This document shows, one piece after another, positions 1-64,000 of a DNA stretch of 64,000 nt. The translations under genes were made by a program, and so were the position numbers. The DNA comes from Octopus vulgaris. Taxonomy: Eukaryota. The notes under the pieces are model-generated. The model did no database searches. It had not been told where the DNA came from and was given only the letters and a program-made list of their open reading frames with translations. The stretch is taken from assembly GCA_951406725.2 (NCBI GenBank), contig OX597825.1, forward strand, positions 88,474,001 to 88,538,000. Reading direction: 5' to 3'. How positions within the stretch are numbered: the stretch's first letter is position 1; each line of letters begins with the position of its first letter.

Positions 1-816
1 AACTTATGAAATTTTAAAACATCAGGGTAATATAAATCTGTTAAATAATCGTCTGGAGTTGGGAGCATATTGTATACATTCCACAACCCGAACGTTTAAA
101 TACTTTAAATAAAAATTGTGAGTATTCCTATATTTTTCAAATTTTAACTTTTTATTATAATGATAATAAGAAATATATTATGCTAGCTTTCAATTTAACT
201 TTCATAGATGACTAAAAAAACTTCACTGCAAACTTGAAATTGAATTTGTTTCTAAAATTAATCTAGCTTTAAAATTAATAAGGCTTTCCCCCAGTTAAAA
301 ATTACTATGCCTACTCATAATAATAAGTGATAGGTTGTTTCCCCTTTTTTTCTCTAAATTACACTGTCTGTGAATGGGATTGGGACCATTTGACATTGAC
401 TTAGTTTCTCTCATCAAATAGCAGTAATTGGCATTTATTAGTGGCAATTGCTGTTTTCACCATGAATTCCTTTTATGGAGTTCTGAAACCTCCTTTACCC
501 CATTTCTACAATTAAACAATCTTTATTGCTTCTAACCTTACAGCAGTTAGGAACAACCATATCTTAGTCAGTCAGTGGAAATACTTCACTACCTCATATG
601 TTCTTAAAATTTAAATCCACATCTTTGTCTGTATATCTACCTTCTCTACAATGTTGCCACTTGATTCGAAACTTTTTGTATTAATGGATAACCTCTATAA
701 TTATCTGATGAGTACTCACCATATTAAATATGTTGTATTACAACATTTAATAAAATGATGTAGTACGAAACGATCGTACCAAATTACCGGAGTCATTCTT
801 GTTGCTTATTTTGAAT
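1..816 (+). mobile_element. Possible 3' end of a Penelope-like element (degenerate EN C-terminus plus pLTR-like tail) ending in (TA)n
   Basis: Degenerate peptide EHIVYIPQPERLNTLNKNCE near 63-122 resembles the PLE GIY-YIG C-terminal LNKxxE motif; hammerhead-like motif at 698-788; ends at TA repeat ~817. Confidence 0.3.
698..788 (+). ncRNA. Type I hammerhead ribozyme-like motif (weak stem I)
   Basis: CTGATGA 705-711; stem II GTAC...GTAC enclosing ATTAAATATGTTG/CAACATTTAAT hairpin; GAAA 767-770; palindromic stem III ACGATCGT; GTA triplet 776-778; stem I imperfect. Confidence 0.55.
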
Positions 817-2017: not shown

Positions 2018-4237
2018 ATTTAATAAAATGATGTAGGAAAAGAATGTATAAATTATAGCAGACCGGGGTTGAGGTTCATTGCAGGTGTTTCAAACATTTT
2101 ATTTGTTGATGAACGAAAGCGTTACAAACTGCAAAAAAAGAAAACCTTTGTCCAGGTGAATAAAGAGTAAAATTTAACACTTATAATTCCCACAATAAAG
2201 AGCATAATGCACGTTCACCATAATTATATATATATATGAGAGAGTATCAAAAGATGGACACGCGCATACAAACATATATTTATGTTTATTTCACTTACGC
2301 ATTTCAATTGCCACCAATGAAATTGAAATTCCTTTTGCAACACCTTCAGTGTGTGTATGTGACTTGATTAAACGAATTCAATGCAAATTGTGAGCTTACT
2401 TTGCTTATTATGTTCAATTAAGCTAGTTCTCATCTTATTATATATGTGTCGTGTTCCTGTTTCATGCACAACAACAATTATGCAAATGTCAAGCAAAACT
2501 TCCATCCTTCTCCTCCGCTAAATACTTTTAAATATATTAAGAAGAGAGCAACCAGTCTAATAGGAAATACAACCATTTGGACGAATTTATAGTTTTGATA
2601 AATTTCCTTAGATCAACAAAACAAATAGAAACATTTGCATAAGAGTTCATGAAAATTACATGGGAAGTAGAATCGGTTCGTGAAATTGAATCCTCAAGTA
2701 TTAATAAACACAGGATTTTCCTAGGATTGTTCTCACTAAACCGTCAATAAAGCTGGAGGCCTCAATCATAAATAATTCATAAAATTCATATGTATTTTCA
2801 CTCAAGTGGTTGTGTGTGAAGATGCAAATAATGTCCTTTTCTATGTATTTGTACGAGGTCATTAATAGCATATAATGTTTCGCAAGTCTTTGCAAAATTA
2901 CCCCGAAATAAACTTTTCTGTTCTACCAGTGTTAGATTTCTGTGAGGCAGTTCGCTGGATGGCGAAGTTACACAAGTACTTTCACCAAAGTATAAATATC
3001 ATGCTAACAATTGTTACTCTAAATTTAGTTTGTTAATACTCAGGTATCTGTAATTACTGCTGTCACAAACATATATACTCACTTATATATACATATTACT
3101 ATAATAGTTCATTTATATAACTTACTTGTAAATACTACTTCATACATCGTCAGATATATATAAAGACGTTTCTTTTTCTAACTTTTGCTGCTTAATTATC
3201 GTTATTCACACATCAGTATAAGTAATTTATGAATCTGCATTAGGGAATAAAATTTCTTTATTTTAAAGCTACCATCGATTTCATGTTATGAAAGTAATCT
3301 TAATATCTTAACAACTTTTGAAGCCAATCGCACGCAGGGATGTAGGAATAAATAATTCCTGCCATTTCAGAATCCCTACATTATAGTAAACATGTTGTTA
3401 AATTCTGCAATTCATTATCGAAAATAGAATTCAATCCTATTACATATCTTATAGCAGATTAAATTCGTGTGTCTAAATTACTTTAACTTTGTAAGGTTGC
3501 AAACAGACTATATAATAACATCTTTTGAATGTCGAATATAACAGTGCATGTTGATTGTTTTAAACTAGGTATCAGCTGGTGCATTTCGCTCAGGAGTTGG
3601 AGAGATATTTTAGACTACCATAACGTTTCGAAGTTACTAATGATGCAATACTTCATACGGACACTATAAAAATTTTAATTCCCGAAATTAAACTTATGGA
3701 TCTATCAGTTTATTTCCTTTGAAATGCAGAAATATAACCTATTTAATATAGTACTTGCAATGCGCTTCTGCACTCAGAATTTACGCCGGTTATCTATATT
3801 TCGAACGTGCATAAAATATTTCATTTGCCTTTCTATATACATTTCCCTCGGAATGTTACTTGGGATTTTGAAATCAAGATTTCTTGACAGAAATTATGCA
3901 AAAAATTAATCAGTTTGCATCAACTAAAATAAATAGCATTTTGCCTAATCTCTCGTGATCTGTTGCTGAAATCACTGAACCATATTGAGAGGAAGATACC
4001 GATATTCTTTATGAAATACTGCAATGCCAGTTCTATTTAAACTTGCCAATTTTCGGCAATATGAGGAATCATTGAGCTATCTTTTGCGATGATATTTTCC
4101 CATATAAAAGAAACGGAGAATATGAAGATTTTACGAATATACAAATAGTTTGAAGAATTTCATAATGAGTTCATTATTGTTTACATCTATTAAAAATGCA
4201 ATATTAGCCTTAAAACAACTAACAATAGATAACAACA

Positions 4238-4271
<34 letters not shown>

Positions 4272-4665
4272 ATACACACACACACACATACACGCACACA
4301 CAGACAACTTCAGCTTTATATATAGAGAGTTTATTTGAAATGTAAATTCATTTACTGAAATGTGAGAATTGCATACGAATCTGAGATGGAGAACTATATA
4401 TGATTGTGTACTGAATTTGATCTGATTGAACTGCTCAGATCGCAGTCTTGTTCGATAGTGAGGAAAACAAGGCGTTATATGCGTCATATATATATATATA
4501 ATTTAGTTAATTTTATGTATTGGCTTATGTTTTTCATTGTTTGATTTACCTAATAGTGGTTTTATCTCTAATTTAATATAATGTAATATATTTATACTAT
4601 AAAATTGGAATTAATCCTAAATCTGATTTTTCCTTGAAGTTTGGATTTATTCCCTAATATTTTAT

Positions 4666-5198
<533 letters not shown>

Positions 5199-5698
5199 CA
5201 TTACCAGAAGACCGCTGCCACGGGGAGGAAATCATTGACAGAGTCGAAAGACTTGCAAAGATGCATGAATCTCAAACATGGTTATTCTTTCTCATGGAAT
5301 TTATGAATAGAGAAGCTGACTGGCCAACAAATGGAATTTGTTGCAAATGGAATTCCTTGCAAAAAATTAATCAGTTTGCATCAACTAAAATAAATAGCAT
5401 TTTGCCTAATCTCTCGTGATCTGTTGCTGAAATCACTGAACCATATTGAGAGGAAGATACCGATATTCTTTATGAAATACTGCAATGCCAGTTCTATTTA
5501 AACTTGCCAATTTTCGGCAATATGAGGAATCATTGAGCTATCTTTTGCGATGATATTTTCCCATATAAAAGAAACGGAGAATATGAAGATTTTACGAATA
5601 TACAAATAGTTTGAAGAATTTCATAATGAGTTCATTATTGTTTACATCTATTAAAAATGCAATATTAGCCTTAAAACAACTAACAATAGATAACAACA

Positions 5699-5739
<41 letters not shown>

Positions 5740-6129
5740 ACACACACACACATACACGCACACACAGACAACTTCAGCTTTATATATAGAGAGTTTATTT
5801 GAAATGTAAATTCATTTACTGAAATGTGAGAATTGCATACGAATCTGAGATGGAGAACTATATATGATTGTGTACTGAATTTGATCTGATTGAACTGCTC
5901 AGATCGCAGTCTTGTTCGATAGTGAGGAAAACAAGGCGTTATATGCGTCATATATATATATATAATTTAGTTAATTTTATGTATTGGCTTATGTTTTTCA
6001 TTGTTTGATTTACCTAATAGTGGTTTTATCTCTAATTTAATATAATGTAATATATTTATACTATAAAATTGGAATTAATCCTAAATCTGATTTTTCCTTG
6101 AAGTTTGGATTTATTCCCTAATATTTTAT

Positions 6130-6170
<41 letters not shown>

Positions 6171-6174
<4 letters not shown>

Positions 6175-6549
6175 CTGAAGTTCTCTGTGTGTAGCAGGTT
6201 TGGTAGCCTTCAACTAACACGATCTCCTCCGAGACCCTGCGGCGCAAGTTGACCAAAATTGAGAGTATGATAGAAGGCTTGCTCTTCCTTCCGTAGAAGA
6301 AAAAATTCAGATCGGACCATGTTAAGACCAAAAATTATTTACATCTAAAAGTTGCTTTTTTTCTATGAAAATCCCTATTTTGTACGATTTTTTGACTGCT
6401 GTGTTGCCATTTGTCGGTGTAATACAACCAGAAAAAATGTTCACTTAAAGAGAATAACAAGCTACATAATGCAAAATTATTACGTTTTAAAAATTCAAAT
6501 TGTAAAGAGTCGAAAAGAAAACAAACCCGAGCAACGCCGGGCTACACTG

Positions 6550-6553
<4 letters not shown>
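6171..6553 (+). mobile_element. Non-autonomous Helitron (copy 2, inside tandem duplication)
   Basis: Same sequence as 4707-5089. Confidence 0.7.
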
Positions 6554-6601
<48 letters not shown>

Positions 6602-6602
6602 C

Positions 6603-6678
<76 letters not shown>

Positions 6679-7808: not shown

Positions 7809-7928
7809 AGGACAACAAACGCTCGGACAAGACAAACATCTCAAGCGTTATCATTATTAGATTTTTTTTTATAATGATAACGTATATATGACTCGAGATA
7901 TTTGTCTTGCCTCAGTGTTTGTTGTCCT
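7809..7928. repeat. Imperfect inverted repeat next to TA/TG microsatellite
   Basis: AGGACAACAAAC..CAAGACAAA..ATCTC..CGTTATCATTAT pairs with ATAATGATAACG..GAGAT..TTTGTCTTG..GTTTGTTGTCCT. Confidence 0.75.
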
Positions 7929-8173: not shown

Positions 8174-8322
8174 ATGTGTGTGTGTATGTGTGTGTGTGTG
8201 CGTGCGTGTATATTTACATACAAATACACGCATATGCATATGTGAGCATATATACATACATAGACATATACACATATGCGCACATATATACATGGAGTCA
8301 TATATAAATATCTACATATGTG

Positions 8323-8393
<71 letters not shown>

Positions 8394-8412
8394 ACAATTA
8401 TTCGGTAGCCAT

Positions 8413-8473
8413 GATAAAACTCCGAGTTTCGGATGTCGGGGCGGAAACCCACGCCGGCATCTCTTCAGTTATC
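8413..8473 (-). ncRNA. Type I hammerhead ribozyme motif
   Basis: Minus strand: GATAA-CTGAAGA-[GATGCCGG...CCGACATC C]-GAAA-CTCGGAG-TT-TTATC; stem I GATAA/TTATC, stem III CTC/GAG, GUU site. Confidence 0.75.
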
Positions 8474-8499
8474 GGGTCATTGAAAAAATGGTATGGCTC

Positions 8500-8560
8500 G
8501 ATAACTGAAGAGATGCCGGCGTGGGTTTCCGCCCCGACATCCGAAACTCTGTGTTTTATC
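8500..8560 (+). ncRNA. Type I hammerhead ribozyme motif (stem III partly mutated)
   Basis: GATAA 8500-8504, CTGAAGA 8505-8511, GAAA 8543-8546, GTT 8553-8555, TTATC 8556-8560. Confidence 0.65.
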
Positions 8561-8676
8561 ATGGCTACCAAATAATTGTCACATATTATATTTACACATA
8601 ACTTCCTCAATTTACATAATATCGAGGTCTCTTTTATTCTTTTGTTGTCTTGCCATTTCTATCAATACGTTTCTAT

Positions 8677-8725
<49 letters not shown>

Positions 8726-8728
<3 letters not shown>

Positions 8729-9120
8729 TCTTTTACTTGTTTCAGTCATTTGACTGCGGCCATACTGGAGCACCGCCTTTAGTCGAGCAAATCGACCCCG
8801 GGACTTATTCTTTGTAAACCCAGTACTTATTCTATCGGTCTCTTTTGCCGAACCGCTAAGTGACGGTGACGTAAACACACCAGCATCTGTTGTCAAGCGA
8901 TGTTGGGGGGACAAACACAGACACACACACGTACGTATATATATATATACATATATACGACAGGCTTCTTTCAGTTTCCGTCTACCAAATCCACTCACAA
9001 GGCATTGGTCGGCTCGGGGCTATAGCAGGAAACACTTGCCCAAGATGCCACGCAGTGGGACTGAACCCGGAACCATATGGTTTTTTAGCAAGCTACTTAC
9101 CACACAGCCACTCCTGCGCC
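8726..9120 (-). mobile_element. tRNA-headed SINE family A (octopus OR/OK-type), full length with internal CA/TA microsatellite
   Basis: Minus strand starts GGCGCAGGAGTGGCTGTGTGG (A box) ... GGTTCAGTCCC (B box); tail ...GACTGAAACAAGTAAAAGAG; homologous copies at 33635-34010 and 43744-44140. Confidence 0.85.
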
Positions 9121-10648: not shown

Positions 10649-10707
10649 TCACATTAGCTCTCTATCAGCACTCCCTAAGTAGACCATACTAGATATATAT
10701 AATATAG

Positions 10708-10740
<33 letters not shown>

Positions 10741-10796
10741 TATCTGTTTAAGAAAGTATGGTCTATTTAGGGAGTGCTGATAGAGAGCTAATGTGA
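10649..10796. repeat. 42-bp inverted repeat bracketing a TA microsatellite
   Basis: TCACATTAGCTCTCTATCAGCACTCCCTAAGTAGACCATACT (10649-10690) vs AGTATGGTCTATTTAGGGAGTGCTGATAGAGAGCTAATGTGA (10755-10796), one mismatch. Confidence 0.9.
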
Positions 10797-23395: not shown

Positions 23396-23952
23396 AATGC
23401 CCTGATGAAGTACCAGGCAGTGGCTCTCATGGCTTCTGATCTTAACTGGTTGGAAGTGTTATCATGTACATTGTTTTGTCTTGGTATAAAAGATGGGCTA
23501 CAGCAAGTATTCTGCTCAACACCACAGATTTGCTTGTCAGTTGTTTGACCTTAAGCAGTTGAGCATGTCCCTTAGTGGCTGACGATATGTGCATCTCTGA
23601 TCACGAGCAGAAGTAGTGGGGGAGCATCATAGCCATGTGTTGAGAGGGATTCTTTGGGGTTTGAATAATTCACCTCTGGAAACATGGGTGGTTCTTTCAA
23701 CATCCTTAAACAACCCTTATTCAGGGACCTTTTGAGCGGGATGGGCTACTCAACCTGAAGAAAATTCTAACTGGGCCCCACCTGCAAGGTCATGTGCTGT
23801 TTATCTTGATATGAGATCACCATGTCGCGCACATATAGTTGTGATGCATGTGCCTGGTGTACCTTTATCAGACGGGTAGTCATGATGGGTATATTGGGCT
23901 TCGTATATTTTACCCCAGTGTCACTTTGATGGCATGCACTGCTCTCTCACTC

Positions 23953-23953
<1 letters not shown>
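23396..23953 (+). mobile_element. ~560-bp non-coding element flanked by (TAA)n, copy 1
   Basis: Same start (AATGCCCTGATG.AGTACCAGG) and end (CTCTCTCACTCAATAA) as 26058-26601 and 48210-48750(-). Confidence 0.85.
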
Positions 23954-23985
<32 letters not shown>

Positions 23986-23987
<2 letters not shown>

Positions 23988-24989
23988 AAACAAATACAAA
24001 CAAGAAATCATACCACCTAATAAACACAAAGAAGAAGAAGAAGATGATGAAGAAACAACAAAAGCTATAAAACAAATGAAATCCAAACTAAAAATAGAAC
24101 AGCAACGAGCCATGATAAAACGATGGCAAGAAAAGCCCCTTCATGGTAAACACTGCACTAAACTAAACGCAAAAGAAATAGACAAAGAAAAATCCCAGCA
24201 GTGGTTGAGAAGCTCAGGACTCAAAGCAGAAACAGAGGGATTTTTAATTGCAGCACAAGACCAAAACCTCCCCACCAGAAATTACCAAAAACATGTAATG
24301 AAAAGAAATATTACAAGTAACTGCAGAATATGTGGAGATGGACAAGAAACAATAAATCATATTATCTCTAGCTGCCCAGTCCTGGCTAAGAAGGAATATA
24401 TTCATAGACATGACAGAGTTGGAACCTACATACATTGGAAGCTATGCCAACATTATGGAATAACAACAGAAAAAAGATGGTATAGGCACACACCAGAAAA
24501 GGTCACAGAAAACGAGAAAGCAACCATACTCTGGGATATGCCGATACACACAGATAGAGAAATTAAGGCCAACAGACCAGATATAGTTGTCAGAGATCAT
24601 GAAGAAAAAAAATGCTTTCTAATTGATGTATCAATACCGGCAGATGACAACGTGTCTCTAAAAGAAATGGAGAAACTCTCAAAATACAAAGACCTGGAAA
24701 TAGAGGTAACTAGAATGTGGAACCTGAAAACAGAAACAATTCCTATCATAGTAGGTGCATTAGGCATGATAAAAAAATATTCAGACAAATACATAACAAA
24801 AACACCAGGACTTAGAAACACATATAACATACAGAAAATCGCACTACTAGGCATTGCACACATCCTACGCGGAACACTTTCCATACAATAACCATCAGAG
24901 CATCACAAAAAATCACAGCACATACCCAAGGCACACAGAGCTGCGCTCGGTAGTGAAGTGAAAGCACGCTATAAAAATAAAACTACTGA
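23986..24989 (+). mobile_element. R4/Dong-type retrotransposon 3' fragment 2: open ~300-aa frame with CCHC knuckle and restriction-like endonuclease
   Basis: CRICGDGQETINHIISSC, RHD, RPDIVV, IDVSIP, EKLSKYKDL; stop at 24891; 3' UTR then (TAA)n; 5'-truncated, no RT core. Confidence 0.92.
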
Positions 24990-25009
24990 ATAATAATAAT
25001 AATAATAAT

Positions 25010-25504
25010 ATGACTGTCCCAATCGATATAAACGTATCTGTCAAGACCTACCAAAAACTGAGCAAATATAAAGATCTTGAAATAGAAATCAGCAAAATGT
25101 GGAAGCTGAAGACTAAAACAATACCTGTTGTCATAGGTGCCCTGGGAATGATAGCGAAAGGGACTGATTGCTACCTAACTCAGATACCAGGAAACCCCAA
25201 AATGGCAGAAATTCAAAAGATAGTGCTCATGGGAACTGCTCATATCCTACGCAAAATACTCTCTATGTAATCCCAAGGTTTAAAACAAACTTTTTTTAAA
25301 TTTTTTTTTTATTTTTTAAATTTATTTATTTATTTTTTTTATTTATTATTATTTTATTTTATGTATTAGACATTCACTAGTACAACACCAAAAGAAAAAA
25401 AACCCAAATATATGGCACAGAACTTCCAACCTGTTGTCTCTTGAGGGCTCTGGGTGAGACCTGGAGCCAACTTGTACAGACATAAAGCAAAAGTCAAACA
25501 TAGA
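25010..25504 (+). mobile_element. R4/Dong-type 3' fragment 3
   Basis: MTVPIDINV..KLSKYKDLEIEISKMW..IPVVIGALG..GTAHILRKILSM* (25010-25270); own 3' UTR; (TAA)n on both sides. Confidence 0.9.
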
Positions 25505-25527
25505 ATAATAATAATAATAATAATAAT

Positions 25528-26021
25528 CAAAGCCAATAAACCGGATATTGTTGTGAAAGACCAAAACAATAAAGTTTGCTTATTGATCGACATGAGCATC
25601 CCCTGTGACTATGATATCTCGGCGAAAGAATTTGACAAGCTCAGAAAATATAAAGACCTGATCATTGAAATTGAGAAAATGTGGCATCTCAAGGCGGTTA
25701 CAATACCAGTGATCGTAGGAGCACTAGGAATGATCAAGAAGGGAACCGAAAATTATATGAGAATGATGCCTGGCTTACCATCCCTGCAAGAAGTGCAAAA
25801 GATTGTTTTAACTGGTACATCACACGTATTGAGAAGAGCATTGTCGATGTGAGAACTATTACTACCCATGTATTTTAATTTAACTTTATTTCTATCAAAA
25901 ATAAAAAAAATTAACGAACTAGTGAGTTTAGTTTAATGTATACTATGAGTTTCTTTGCCCTAGGAGTCGGGAAGACACTCGGCAAGAAATGGAAGCAAAT
26001 TTGAAAGAAGAAGAAAAACCC
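25528..26021 (+). mobile_element. R4/Dong-type 3' fragment 4
   Basis: KANKPDIVVKD..LIDMSIP..KYKDLIIEIEKMW..GTSHVLRRALSM* (to 25852); different 3' UTR; (TAA)n on both sides. Confidence 0.9.
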
Positions 26022-29562: not shown

Positions 29563-29574
<12 letters not shown>

Positions 29575-29793
29575 AGGAAATGAAGAAAATGCTGACAAAT
29601 AATTGAAGTAATTTAAGTAATTTAATTAGGTGAAAGTTCTTTTTACGGTTGCGCATTTGTTATGCTTATCAAAATATGATATTTTGATAAGCATAACAAA
29701 TGCGCAACCGGTAAAAAGAACTTTCACCTAATTAAATTACTTAAATTACTTCAATTATTTGTCAGCATTTTCTTCATTTCCTTTTTTATATAT
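29563..29793. mobile_element. Almost perfect palindrome (~115-bp arms, 1-nt centre at 29678) between (TA)n tracts, each arm with a variant hammerhead-like core
   Basis: Arms differ only by single-base indels; right arm TTGATAA-GCAT-AACAA-ATGC-GCAA-CCG-GTA (29684-29713). Confidence 0.85.
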
Positions 29794-29817
29794 CACCACT
29801 CGTGTTCGACATCTCCT

Positions 29818-29885
<68 letters not shown>

Positions 29886-38783: not shown

Positions 38784-39606
38784 GGATCTTTTCCTTTTGA
38801 ACGGTACTTTTCAACACAATTTCTAGTTAACTAAACACTTTTAAACTTCGTATACAGGTAGAATGTGTTTATAAAACATCATTTTTTCTTGGCATTATTG
38901 AGAAAATTCTATATGTTGTAACATATTTCATCTTTAATTTCGAGCATTTCGGCAATTTTAACCAATCGCTGGCGTCCATTTAGGTAAATAACATTCTGTG
39001 CATAATGAATATGTCCCTCCTTTAAGAAACAGATTGGGTTTATTTACATTTGTGAAGAACAAAGATACCCTTCCCCTACCCCTAAATCTAACTCTCACCC
39101 TAAATCTAAAATAGATTGAAATGCAATAGATCGATACTAGGATTATAATTATGGGTGACAATTTCATACGACACCGCTACAGAAAATGGGTTCTTTTTCT
39201 AGCGGTGTCAAATGAAAATGTCACCCATAATTTTGGCCTTAGTATCGATCTATTGCATTTCAATCTATTTTAGATTTAGGGTGAAAGTTAGGGTTAGGGT
39301 TAGGGGTGGGAGAAGGGTATGATACTTAATTTATTCACAAATGTAAATAAACCCAATCTGTTTCTTAAAGGAGGGACATATTCATTATGCACAGAATGTT
39401 ATTTACCTAAATGGACGTATTTGATTGGTTAAAATTGCCGAAATGCTCGAAATTAAAGACGAAATATCTTACAATCTATGGAATTTTCTCAATAAAGCCA
39501 AGAGAAAATGATGCTTTATAAACACATTCTACCAGTACACGAAGTTTAAAACTTTTTAGTTACCTAGAAATTAAGTTACAAAGTGCCGTTCAAAAGGAAA
39601 AGATTC
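38784..39606. mobile_element. 823-bp foldback/MITE-like DNA element with ~400-bp inverted arms and 8-bp TSD
   Basis: Termini GGATCTTTTCCTTTTGAACGG / CCGTTCAAAAGGAAAAGATTC; CTCTGTAT at 38776-38783 and 39607-39614; centre ~39190; internal TTAGGG-like repeats. Confidence 0.9.
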
Positions 39607-39915: not shown

Positions 39916-40964
39916 AAAACAATTGTGGGTCAACGACTTCACATACGACACCACCCTTCAAACAATTAATCATATATAAAAAAAATACCCCATGGTCTAC
40001 AAACACTTATCCATAATACATATCCATAAAATCACAGAACGTAAAAATATATCCTAATAAAATGCAAACAGAACGGCCTATCAAAAAGTTACATTTAACG
40101 ACTAAAAATTCAAAACTATCAAAAGCCTACTGGACAAATATAAAATAAAGATAAAAATAAAATAAATGTCCACCGACTAAAAAGATTTTATCTGACGATT
40201 AAAATATATTTTTTTTAAAACTATTAATATTAAAAAAATATATATTTGAAATTGTTTTTTACTGCCCTCACACAGGTACATCCACTGTTCATAAGTAGAC
40301 AGACATCCACAGGTTAAATTCACGTACGTCTTGAAAAAAGTCTTTTAATCCCTTCACACAAATACGTTCAAAGTTCATAATAAACAGATATCACCGGTCA
40401 AATTCAACATTCACATACATCTAAGTCCATTTCGTGAGATGACCACCGCAGTTTATTTACACTAAAGGGCATGACGGTGATGACCCCACATCTGAATAAA
40501 CATAAAACATTCGCAGATCAAAATTTTTACGAAAAGCTTTTACCGTTTGATAAAAGCTTATATAATTTGAGAAGATCCCATCAACGGACGAGTCCAAATT
40601 TTCTGTTGAAGAAAAAAATTGCAAAACACGCAGGTGACTGTAGTTAACAGAAAATTAACATCGCGGTTTCAACTCCCCTGGCTCTCGAAATAAGGGGCCA
40701 TTCCAGAGAATAACTCTTATTATTCCTCTTTAGATCGTGGAAATAAGATGGTAGTGTGGTAGAGTTGCAGTATTTTTCGTTGGAGAACCAGCTCACGTGG
40801 GCCCTATATCTAGCCTTAAAATTTACTGTACCTCCTATATAAAACTTATTTAGATTATCCTCATCCTTAACAACACCTTTATATACTGCATTGGTAATTG
40901 GATAGAACCCGTGAAGGGGACATGATCCAGGGTTTCTATAATTACGTGATTTGTGTTTGTACAT
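39912..40964 (-). mobile_element. Penelope-like element 3' fragment with GIY-YIG endonuclease
   Basis: ORF 40644-40964: CPLHG..NAVYKGVV..FYIGGTVNFKARYRAH..STTL..LK..LEW; long non-coding tail; TA repeats on both sides. Confidence 0.85.
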
Positions 40965-41244
40965 ATATGTGTATATATATTCATAAATATGGACGTGAAC
41001 GGGTTTTCACGAATACGATGATTGAGAAGTAAAATCCCTTGTGGTTAACGCAGTTTCTCGTCAAAATCCCGGACCAATCCAAGGGAGACAAGTTGAATCC
41101 CATGATCTTATTTTTATATTTCTATATCTCGTAAAGTCTCGTGTGGGCTTCTGTATTCTCATCCAAAATAACGAGGTGTTCCAATCTCTCCATGTGTACT
41201 GTCTCTTTCTATTTCACAGACGCACACACGCAAACATCTGCGAA

Positions 41245-61002: not shown

Positions 61003-61066
61003 TGGTCCTCTTTTGTAGCAGTGGAAATAAAGTTTTCTTTATTTTCACTGCTACAAAAGAGGACCA
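61003..61066. other. 64-nt hairpin (30-bp stem, TTTT loop)
   Basis: TGGTCCTCTTTTGTAGCAGTGGAAATAAAG-TTTT-CTTTATTTTCACTGCTACAAAAGAGGACCA; single G.T. Confidence 0.9.
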
Positions 61067-63487: not shown

Positions 63488-63534
<47 letters not shown>

Positions 63535-63562
63535 CATACATACATACACTCTTTGAGTAAAG

Positions 63563-63904
63563 ATTATTCTCAAGAAAATCCAGCAAACGCCGGAACGTAG
63601 GCGAGCAAGACAAATGAAAAGATACAAACTATAAAGATTAATCACAAACCAGATTTCATTGTTACCACATACGTAATACTTACCTAAATGTCTGCAATTC
63701 ATCAGTGTGATTCTCAGAACAAAATATAACATGCAGAACTATAAACGGGACGTCCGCATGGGAGTGAATATTGAGCATTGAACGTAAGTATTACGTAAGT
63801 GGTAACAATGAAACCGGATTTGTGTTTAATCTTTATATTTTGTATCTCTTCATTTGTCTCGCACGCCTATGTTCTGGCGTTTGCTGAATTTTCTTGAGAA
63901 CAAT
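63563..63904. mobile_element. Diverged inverted repeat (~125-bp arms, ~85-bp spacer) of pLTR-like tails
   Basis: TTCTCAAGAAAAT.CAGCAAACGCC..TTTCATTGTTACCAC.TACGTAATACTTAC vs its reverse complement at 63776-63904. Confidence 0.85.
63640..63712 (-). ncRNA. Type I hammerhead ribozyme motif
   Basis: AATCACA-CTGATGA-ATTG...CAAT-GAAA-TCTG-GTT-TGTGATT; 7-bp stem I, GUU site. Confidence 0.7.
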
Positions 63905-64000
63905 ATTTTCTTAGTGGTCAGACAATATGGAGTCTACTTCTAGCATAATGGATCTCCACTTAGTGGTCATCCGACTTATATGTATGTAATATAATTTTTC

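Follow-up and report, generated by a model that had tools for sequence, protein, structure and literature searches.

Penelope-like elements and opposite-strand hammerheads

Insertions of Penelope-like elements (PLEs) have been described that carry an inverted copy truncated at its 5' side and a tail confined to one end, and that show a bias towards microsatellites, according to the accessible sections of Craig et al. (2021, PMC8557442). In this regard, inverted pseudo-LTRs (pLTRs) of unequal length, with an optional tail and with head-to-head junctions as the commonest type, are reported in the available part of Arkhipova et al. (2013, PMC3846280). On the biochemical side, a purified PLE protein, the anole Poseidon PAc, is able to cut AT-rich DNA on both strands and to extend them, with two internal starts of reverse transcription whose spacing equals the tail (Frangieh et al. 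2024, PMC11167929, excerpted text). The accessible portion of that paper demonstrates no joining of two cDNAs, and the ribozyme depended on protein and was not required for insertion.

As for the ribozymes, the available text of Cervera and de la Peña (2014, PMC4209133) describes such hammerheads as inactive in monomeric and weak in dimeric form, and the accessible part of a review (PMC6765202) concurs on the dimers. The 2014 work also presents pairs of minimal hammerheads on opposite strands of the Schistosoma mansoni genome, 100-700 bp apart, which were attributed to truncated PLEs. Another related group is that of the animal non-LTR retrozymes, presented in the available sections of two sources (PMC7229834; bioRxiv 10.64898/2026.07.22.740005) as short non-coding type I hammerhead repeats, proposed to depend on PLEs and arranged as tandem units on the same strand. 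For Octopus vulgaris, 31 Penelope-like families with recently active copies have been reported in an article whose main text, in its accessible part, does not bring up hammerheads (PMC13282606), and among open-access texts no publication title describes the particular family treated here.

The present locus lies in a window of 64,000 nucleotides of O. vulgaris (contig OX597825.1, positions 88,474,001 to 88,538,000), where a palindrome with one hammerhead on each strand had been pointed out as a special arrangement. Such an arrangement is already known, since it follows published PLE architecture and pairs of hammerheads on opposite strands have been in print since 2014 (PMC4209133, PMC3846280 and PMC8557442, each in its accessible text), and the idea that it is special is not supported. 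As in the inverted pLTRs of EN+ PLEs, we find unequal head-to-head arms, a junction with overlap or microhomology, a single-ended tail, an AT-rich or (TA)n target and a hammerhead in the terminal repeat; a weak, self-complementary helix III and an inverted copy with variable truncation are further features of this group seen here. Unlike those elements, no coding body lies between the arms, both of which are stumps, and the tail, of about 85 nt, exceeds the published 30-40 bp, which counts against a PLE origin. With the S. mansoni pairs the locus has in common two closely spaced type I hammerheads on opposite strands with a weak palindromic helix III. In contrast to the non-LTR retrozymes, there is a single inverted pair; tandem same-strand units were not found within the window, and this classification was rejected.

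A lopsided insertion between (TA)n tracts

The near-perfect palindrome of about 190 bp originally proposed at 8391..8582 is indeed present. Its axis falls at 8486.5, and the two arms (8391-8480 and 8493-8582) are mismatched at 5 of 90 positions, namely the pairs 8403/8570, 8421/8552, 8423/8550, 8475/8498 and 8477/8496. Between them lies an unpaired centre of 12 nt (8481-8492), and pairing of the arms extends outwards to 8387/8586. For the whole palindrome, the predicted hairpin energies are -164.9 kcal/mol on the plus strand and -159.4 kcal/mol on the minus strand.

The palindrome is only part of a longer and lopsided insertion, which does not stop at 8582 and covers 8387-8681; no further copies of this element occur within the window. 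On the left side, a TA run at 8326..8389 is a (TA)n microsatellite that would represent the insertion target, to which the left arm is joined via ATAT. This arm (8387..8495, minus strand, including the 12-nt centre) is an inverted 5'-truncated family end devoid of tail, which extends 27 nt upstream of its ribozyme core. The right arm (8493..8586, plus strand) is another 5'-truncated family end, whose start, 12 nt upstream of the core, coincides with the base of a predicted extended stem I. Both arms share three nucleotides of microhomology at their head-to-head junction, the ATG at 8493..8495, with loose contig ends before 8493 and behind 8495. The right arm is followed by a one-sided tail of about 85 nt (8583..8667, plus strand), and then by a stretch (8668..8681, plus strand) in which two extra bases precede a duplicate of the final 12 nt of the tail (8656-8667, seen again at 8670-8681), which reads as a putative re-priming stutter. 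A right (TA)n microsatellite (8680..8727) would be the other half of the target, and the presence of (TA)n on both sides of the unit hides any target-site duplication. Further to the right, a SINE-like repeat occupies 8732-9120, in a genome context that is rich in AT and in microsatellites.

The tail belongs to the same repeat family as the arms and is not host DNA, since 8583-8667 is deeply covered by contigs of the family and single records bridge arm and tail (for example, 8493-8634, 8546-8667 and 8526-8657). In this line, the original prediction of two equivalent arms, each made of a hammerhead plus a tail of about 22 nt, stands for the hammerhead motifs and not for the symmetry, given that this family sequence is found on the right arm only. 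Nor is the centre a plain spacer: its 12 nt belong to the left arm, whose 5' end is the longer one, because contigs continue upstream past 8495 into family sequence.

These unequal ends also bear on a rearrangement after insertion, in which break repair or template switching within the TA tract would have duplicated and inverted part of an ordinary copy, as the (TA)n tracts and the microhomology might suggest. However, the left arm has 12-15 nt of family sequence absent from the right one, and the tail is absent from the left, so neither arm alone can template the other. Inversion-type joints are moreover common in the family, and we regard a later rearrangement as highly unlikely.

Copies of the family in public sequencing contigs

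The element sequence was found in 21 of the 24 listed public runs, with half of its words or more in 12, and in five coded organisms. Contigs aligned to 8460-8680 were taken from four of the 24 runs, and amounted to 3,461, 5,418, 5,141 and 796, respectively, their summed depth not being equivalent to copy number. The 3' ends of the family cluster near 8587-8600, 8649 and 8667, with simple repeats coming next at 8598-8600, 8649 and 8667. A one-sided tail together with several 3' ends matches the signature of PLEs (PMC8557442, PMC3846280) and the behaviour of the anole PLE in vitro (PMC11167929), as presented in the accessible text of these papers. At the opposite side, the family goes on upstream of 8493, the four runs giving 43, 61, 84 and 15 contigs with loose ends there, and loose ends behind 8495 that continue into other family sequence are seen in 11, 28, 27 and 7 contigs.

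Whether the centre of the palindrome is fixed or variable among copies had been advanced as a check, and the contigs answer that it is variable. Among the 15 joints listed out of 22, 5 lead from an inverted to a forward arm, 9 are strand switches and 1 is an internal deletion. Other copies thus hold at least 14 inversion-type joints, with coordinates that are all different, where each joint represents one contig per run, those with a likeness below 95 may stem from repeats, and the polarity of the strand switches is not given. Some joints carry 1-27 inserted letters, and two of them recur in 2-3 runs.

A MITE or similar non-autonomous DNA transposon, with long terminal inverted repeats, a TA target duplication and a hammerhead look that would be incidental, could account for near-perfect arms and for the TA found on both sides of 8391-8582. 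The right-hand TA is, however, family tail sequence and not target, the family shows several ends and extends upstream of both arms, its centres vary, and the hammerhead motif exceeds what is expected by chance (see below). A MITE of the Tc1/mariner type was rejected, as neither fixed TA-bounded ends nor a uniform length and centre were found, and a DNA transposon of any such kind seems barely credible. The earlier view of a palindrome that has the look of a MITE and is instead related to PLE insertions is supported.

On the other hand, centres near 8493-8494 do recur. Centres comparable to this one are spanned by 5 of the 32 contig pieces listed, which come from three runs and show 8-21 other letters and 0-14 gaps, and this also counts against a simple integration product. 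In an alternative reading, the palindrome would be a replicating non-autonomous unit copied as a whole by PLE proteins, where one ribozyme per strand processes both polarities. Depth through the centre, read as contigs passing through 8493-8494, was 68-105, 589-592, 675-751 and 0 in the four runs, and the values of 589-751 in two of them, compared with 14-59 for most single records, point in the same direction, as does the recurrence of the two other joints. However, depth at the centre stays below 2% of that at 8498 (42,884, 53,715, 78,015 and 2,591 in the four runs) and below 0.1% of that at 8560, the other junctions are scattered, the two ends are unequal, and the ribozyme fold is predicted to cost 90-93 kcal/mol against the hairpin. 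Recurrence across runs is, moreover, explicable by the shared ancestry of a single locus. A replicating palindrome is therefore very unlikely, and we give similarly little credit to a minority of palindromes being a self-propagating two-polarity ribozyme unit, a non-coding hairpin of about 280 bp copied by Penelope proteins. If this were true, such a unit would be the genomic counterpart of viroid-like RNAs with a ribozyme in each polarity, and its other copies would be represented by the few contigs of three runs in which a comparable centre is spanned.

The family variants help to place both arms. At 8498, 8550, 8552 and 8570, four of the five positions where the arms differ, it is the right arm that departs from the family majority, and both arms have in common two minority letters of the family, C at 8499 (about 11-32% of depth) and C at 8516 (about 14-36%), as read from 40 of the 54 variant rows. 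Sharing these letters is what would be expected of arms copied from one template. Depth at the 3' part is 4-8-fold above that at stem II, which fits 5' truncation and to which we give little weight. Variants are mostly C>T and G>A changes at CpG and offer no usable covariation. Scans for the exact motif among viral, metagenome and prokaryote genome contigs gave 0 matches in each collection.

Hammerhead motifs of the two arms

Each arm carries a hammerhead motif and both motifs point outward, every one composed of a 5-bp stem I, the CUGAAGA box, a stem II region of 31 nt, GAAA, a stem/loop III of 7 nt and U16.1-U17. The type I hammerhead of the left arm (8413..8473, minus strand) has its core at 8468-8462, GAAA at 8430-8427 and a self-complementary stem III at 8427-8419, which agrees with the majority letters of the family; cleavage is predicted after the GUU at 8418 (minus strand). 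A self-complementary stem III of this sort fits the hammerheads of PLE type, as described in the available text of PMC4209133. In the right arm (8500..8560, plus strand; core 8505-8511, GAAA 8543-8546), where the predicted cut would follow the GUU at 8555 (plus strand), stem III is damaged: private changes break it at 8550, which differs from 81-91% of family depth, and at 8552, which differs from at least 98.8%, leaving a helix III of one pair beyond A15.1-U16.1. The type I core elements (CUGANGA, GAAA, UH and helices I-III) are consequently all found in the left arm, and the right arm has them with a reduced helix III. A complete hammerhead had originally been assigned to each arm, which proves correct for the left and not for the right one. 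Likewise, the label of double hammerhead is misleading, since in the literature it denotes a dimer on the same strand, unlike the opposite-strand pair seen here.

The motif deviates from the textbook form in two respects, with an additional C ahead of GAAA (on the 3' side) and a U at position 17 (H17 = U), and both also set it apart from the S. mansoni pairs, as do a longer stem II (31 nt in all) and cores separated by 36 nt. A U at position 17 makes a weaker cleavage triplet.

A descriptor scan of the 64-kb window was compared with 30 block shuffles. It gave three matches, the two arms of the palindrome and a third one at 63705, against 0 in each of the shuffles, so that the motif exceeds chance. 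Rfam gave 0 matches at the gathering score in the whole window, hence none to a hammerhead family, which counts against the assignment. At E<=10, the region 8300-8700 gave 25 Rfam matches, none of them a hammerhead and most of them generic miRNA hairpins. A microRNA precursor was rejected, as the best of these matches (MIR1319, 74.9 bits versus a gathering score of 116.6) is a generic hairpin match.

Origin of the head-to-head arms

Inverted arms, unequal 5' ends, ATG microhomology, a tail on one arm, flanking (TA)n, family sequence upstream and variable junctions make up the observed set. With good confidence, we attribute it to a PLE-type origin at the time of integration, whether by priming at two ends or by fold-back. 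Within this framework, a single PLE insertion in (TA)n, with two cDNAs of one family joined head to head via ATG, is the explanation that we favour as probable. Following the published mechanism of PLEs, the GIY-YIG endonuclease would nick both strands of the AT-rich (TA)n target, and reverse transcription would begin at two internal sites whose spacing corresponds to the tail. The right arm would be the cDNA from the long start, with tail and stutter, and the left arm the one from the short start, lacking the tail. Both cDNAs would halt shortly beyond the ribozyme, at distances of 12 and 27 nt on the upstream side of the core, and their ends would be joined through the common ATG. As for the hammerheads, they would be passengers brought from the pseudo-LTR, which in the parent tandem RNA would cut as same-strand dimers. 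Two-strand cutting and extension by the anole Poseidon PAc, together with its two starts of reverse transcription, would yield the one-sided tail seen here.

The geometry of the junction, where pairing of ATG with CAT would close a loop of 12 nt, is equally compatible with a fold-back of PLE origin, in which the 3' ATG of the cDNA would pair with the CAT located 12 nt back and copy itself, with removal of the tail from one arm at the later resolution of the intermediate. The 12-nt loop has the microhomology precisely at its base, self-priming has been proposed for head-to-head PLE junctions (accessible Discussion of PMC3846280), and endonuclease-mediated resolution has been proposed for the tail (available text of PMC8557442). 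However, the loop lies on the left arm, which would have been the template and has no tail, unlike the right arm, so fold-back requires that the tail be trimmed in an additional step; at the right end, the stutter of 12 nt suggests separate priming, and extension of both strands by the anole PLE in vitro (PMC11167929, in the part available) adds to the case for two primings. Fold-back thus appears to us possible, if rather unlikely. Also to be counted against the preferred PLE reading, no reverse transcriptase or endonuclease gene was linked to the family, the three contig collections scanned having given 0 matches. The original prediction of a two-ended integration product, with cDNAs joined 5'-to-5', is accordingly retained as to PLE origin and formation at integration; two-ended priming is the best mechanism, and fold-back gives the same junction.

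Expected activity of the ribozymes

A read-through transcript of the locus carries one sense ribozyme plus its antisense. Forcing the ribozyme fold against the hairpin is predicted to cost 93 kcal/mol on the plus and 90 kcal/mol on the minus strand, and even the isolated left arm would favour an alternative fold (-23.8 versus -14.6). The predicted duplex of stem III in a dimer reaches -9.7 kcal/mol for the left arm and +0.1 kcal/mol for the right one. Self-cleavage in place is unlikely, given that a same-strand dimer is reportedly needed, that the hairpin would win by about 90 kcal/mol and that stem III of the right arm is damaged. Self-cleavage at 8387-8681 is therefore predicted to be negligible, and the locus to be catalytically silent, dead repeat DNA. 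Transcripts had been expected either to self-cleave or to form a hairpin of about 90 bp masking the ribozyme: masking is supported by the predicted energies, and a functional two-ribozyme device is not.

If transcribed, the 90-bp hairpin could be a substrate for ADAR or Dicer, like any inverted repeat. A>G places numbered 2 in run X15 (the one with 796 contigs), which was guessed to be RNA and may be DNA, against 2, 2 and 3 in DNA runs, figures that carry no weight for editing or transcription. Depth steps near the predicted cut, from 8548-8555 to 8556-8563. As a sign of cleavage in vivo this step was set aside, because alignments in this place can be clipped by the two mismatches private to this copy (8550 and 8552).

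Other repeats of the window

A second hammerhead palindrome, unrelated and older, is found at 63556-63911, with visibly diverged arms of about 128 bp around an asymmetric centre of 100 nt, very unlike that of the 8387-8681 element, which favours the PLE integration reading. It has a complete motif on the minus strand (core 63705, 7-bp stem I), its other arm begins inside stem II, and a (TA)n run lies nearby at 63492-63529. At 29570-29822, a palindrome of 218 bp (98.6%) is flanked by a (TA)n run on either side and has some 35 nt on the right that the left lacks. Its right arm begins with a hammerhead-like variant at 29684, which shows a U3-A8 core, a 4-bp stem II, GCAA in place of GAAA, a CCGG loop and a weak stem I; this is possibly a third pair of PLE stumps, with a non-standard core. 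Several unrelated families with the same type of scar are what a shared insertion mechanism predicts. Under relaxed criteria, the hammerhead scan returned 3 matches for the window, whereas 40 shuffles averaged 0.125. Outside any inverted repeat, a solo hammerhead-like motif at 705-790 (plus strand) combines CUGAUGA, a 5-bp base of stem II, GAAA, a palindromic CGAUCG loop and a poor stem I.

Only three occurrences of the 9-mer TTGTCTTGC are found in the window, always in or beside an inverted repeat: in a degenerate palindrome at 7809-7928, in the tail of the 8387-8681 element (8645-8653) and in the 63.7-kb element (63605-63613). It could be a shared 3' motif of PLEs. A frame fragment resembling a GIY-YIG endonuclease lies at 40647-41006 (minus strand; Pfam E 0.03, below the cut-off; Atlas features 0.93 to GIY-YIG clusters). 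None of 26 candidates passed as its full-length relative, and the fragment is possibly a decayed PLE end with no link to the palindrome. Three 3' fragments of a non-LTR retroelement at 23845-25852 (plus strand; zf-RVT, Pfam E 1.4e-5), which we take to be Dong/R4-like, have frames that begin in simple-repeat runs. For a neighbouring retroelement protein, the named matches among at least 120 listed were distant, with about 50-60% identity, and came from sea star, sea cucumber, corals and shrimp. Palindromes of MITE-like appearance and devoid of a hammerhead core are also present, at 38786-39604 (819 bp, 87%, whose arms contain telomere-like TTAGGG repeats), 61003-61066 (64 bp) and 10649-10796 (148 bp around a (TA)n centre). 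Finally, two near-identical open frames about 1.46 kb apart (4131-5419 and 5592-6678) point to a local tandem duplication or to an assembly duplication.

Significance

As it stands, 8387-8681 is a tidy example of a known phenomenon. It would be surprising only if a fixed-centre, self-propagating subfamily existed, and the evidence is against it. A large family of tiny two-armed insertions is nonetheless good material to distinguish two-ended priming from fold-back, a matter left open in the PLE papers. For repeat annotation, what matters is that short palindromes that look like MITEs in AT-rich animal genomes can be the stumps of Penelope elements.
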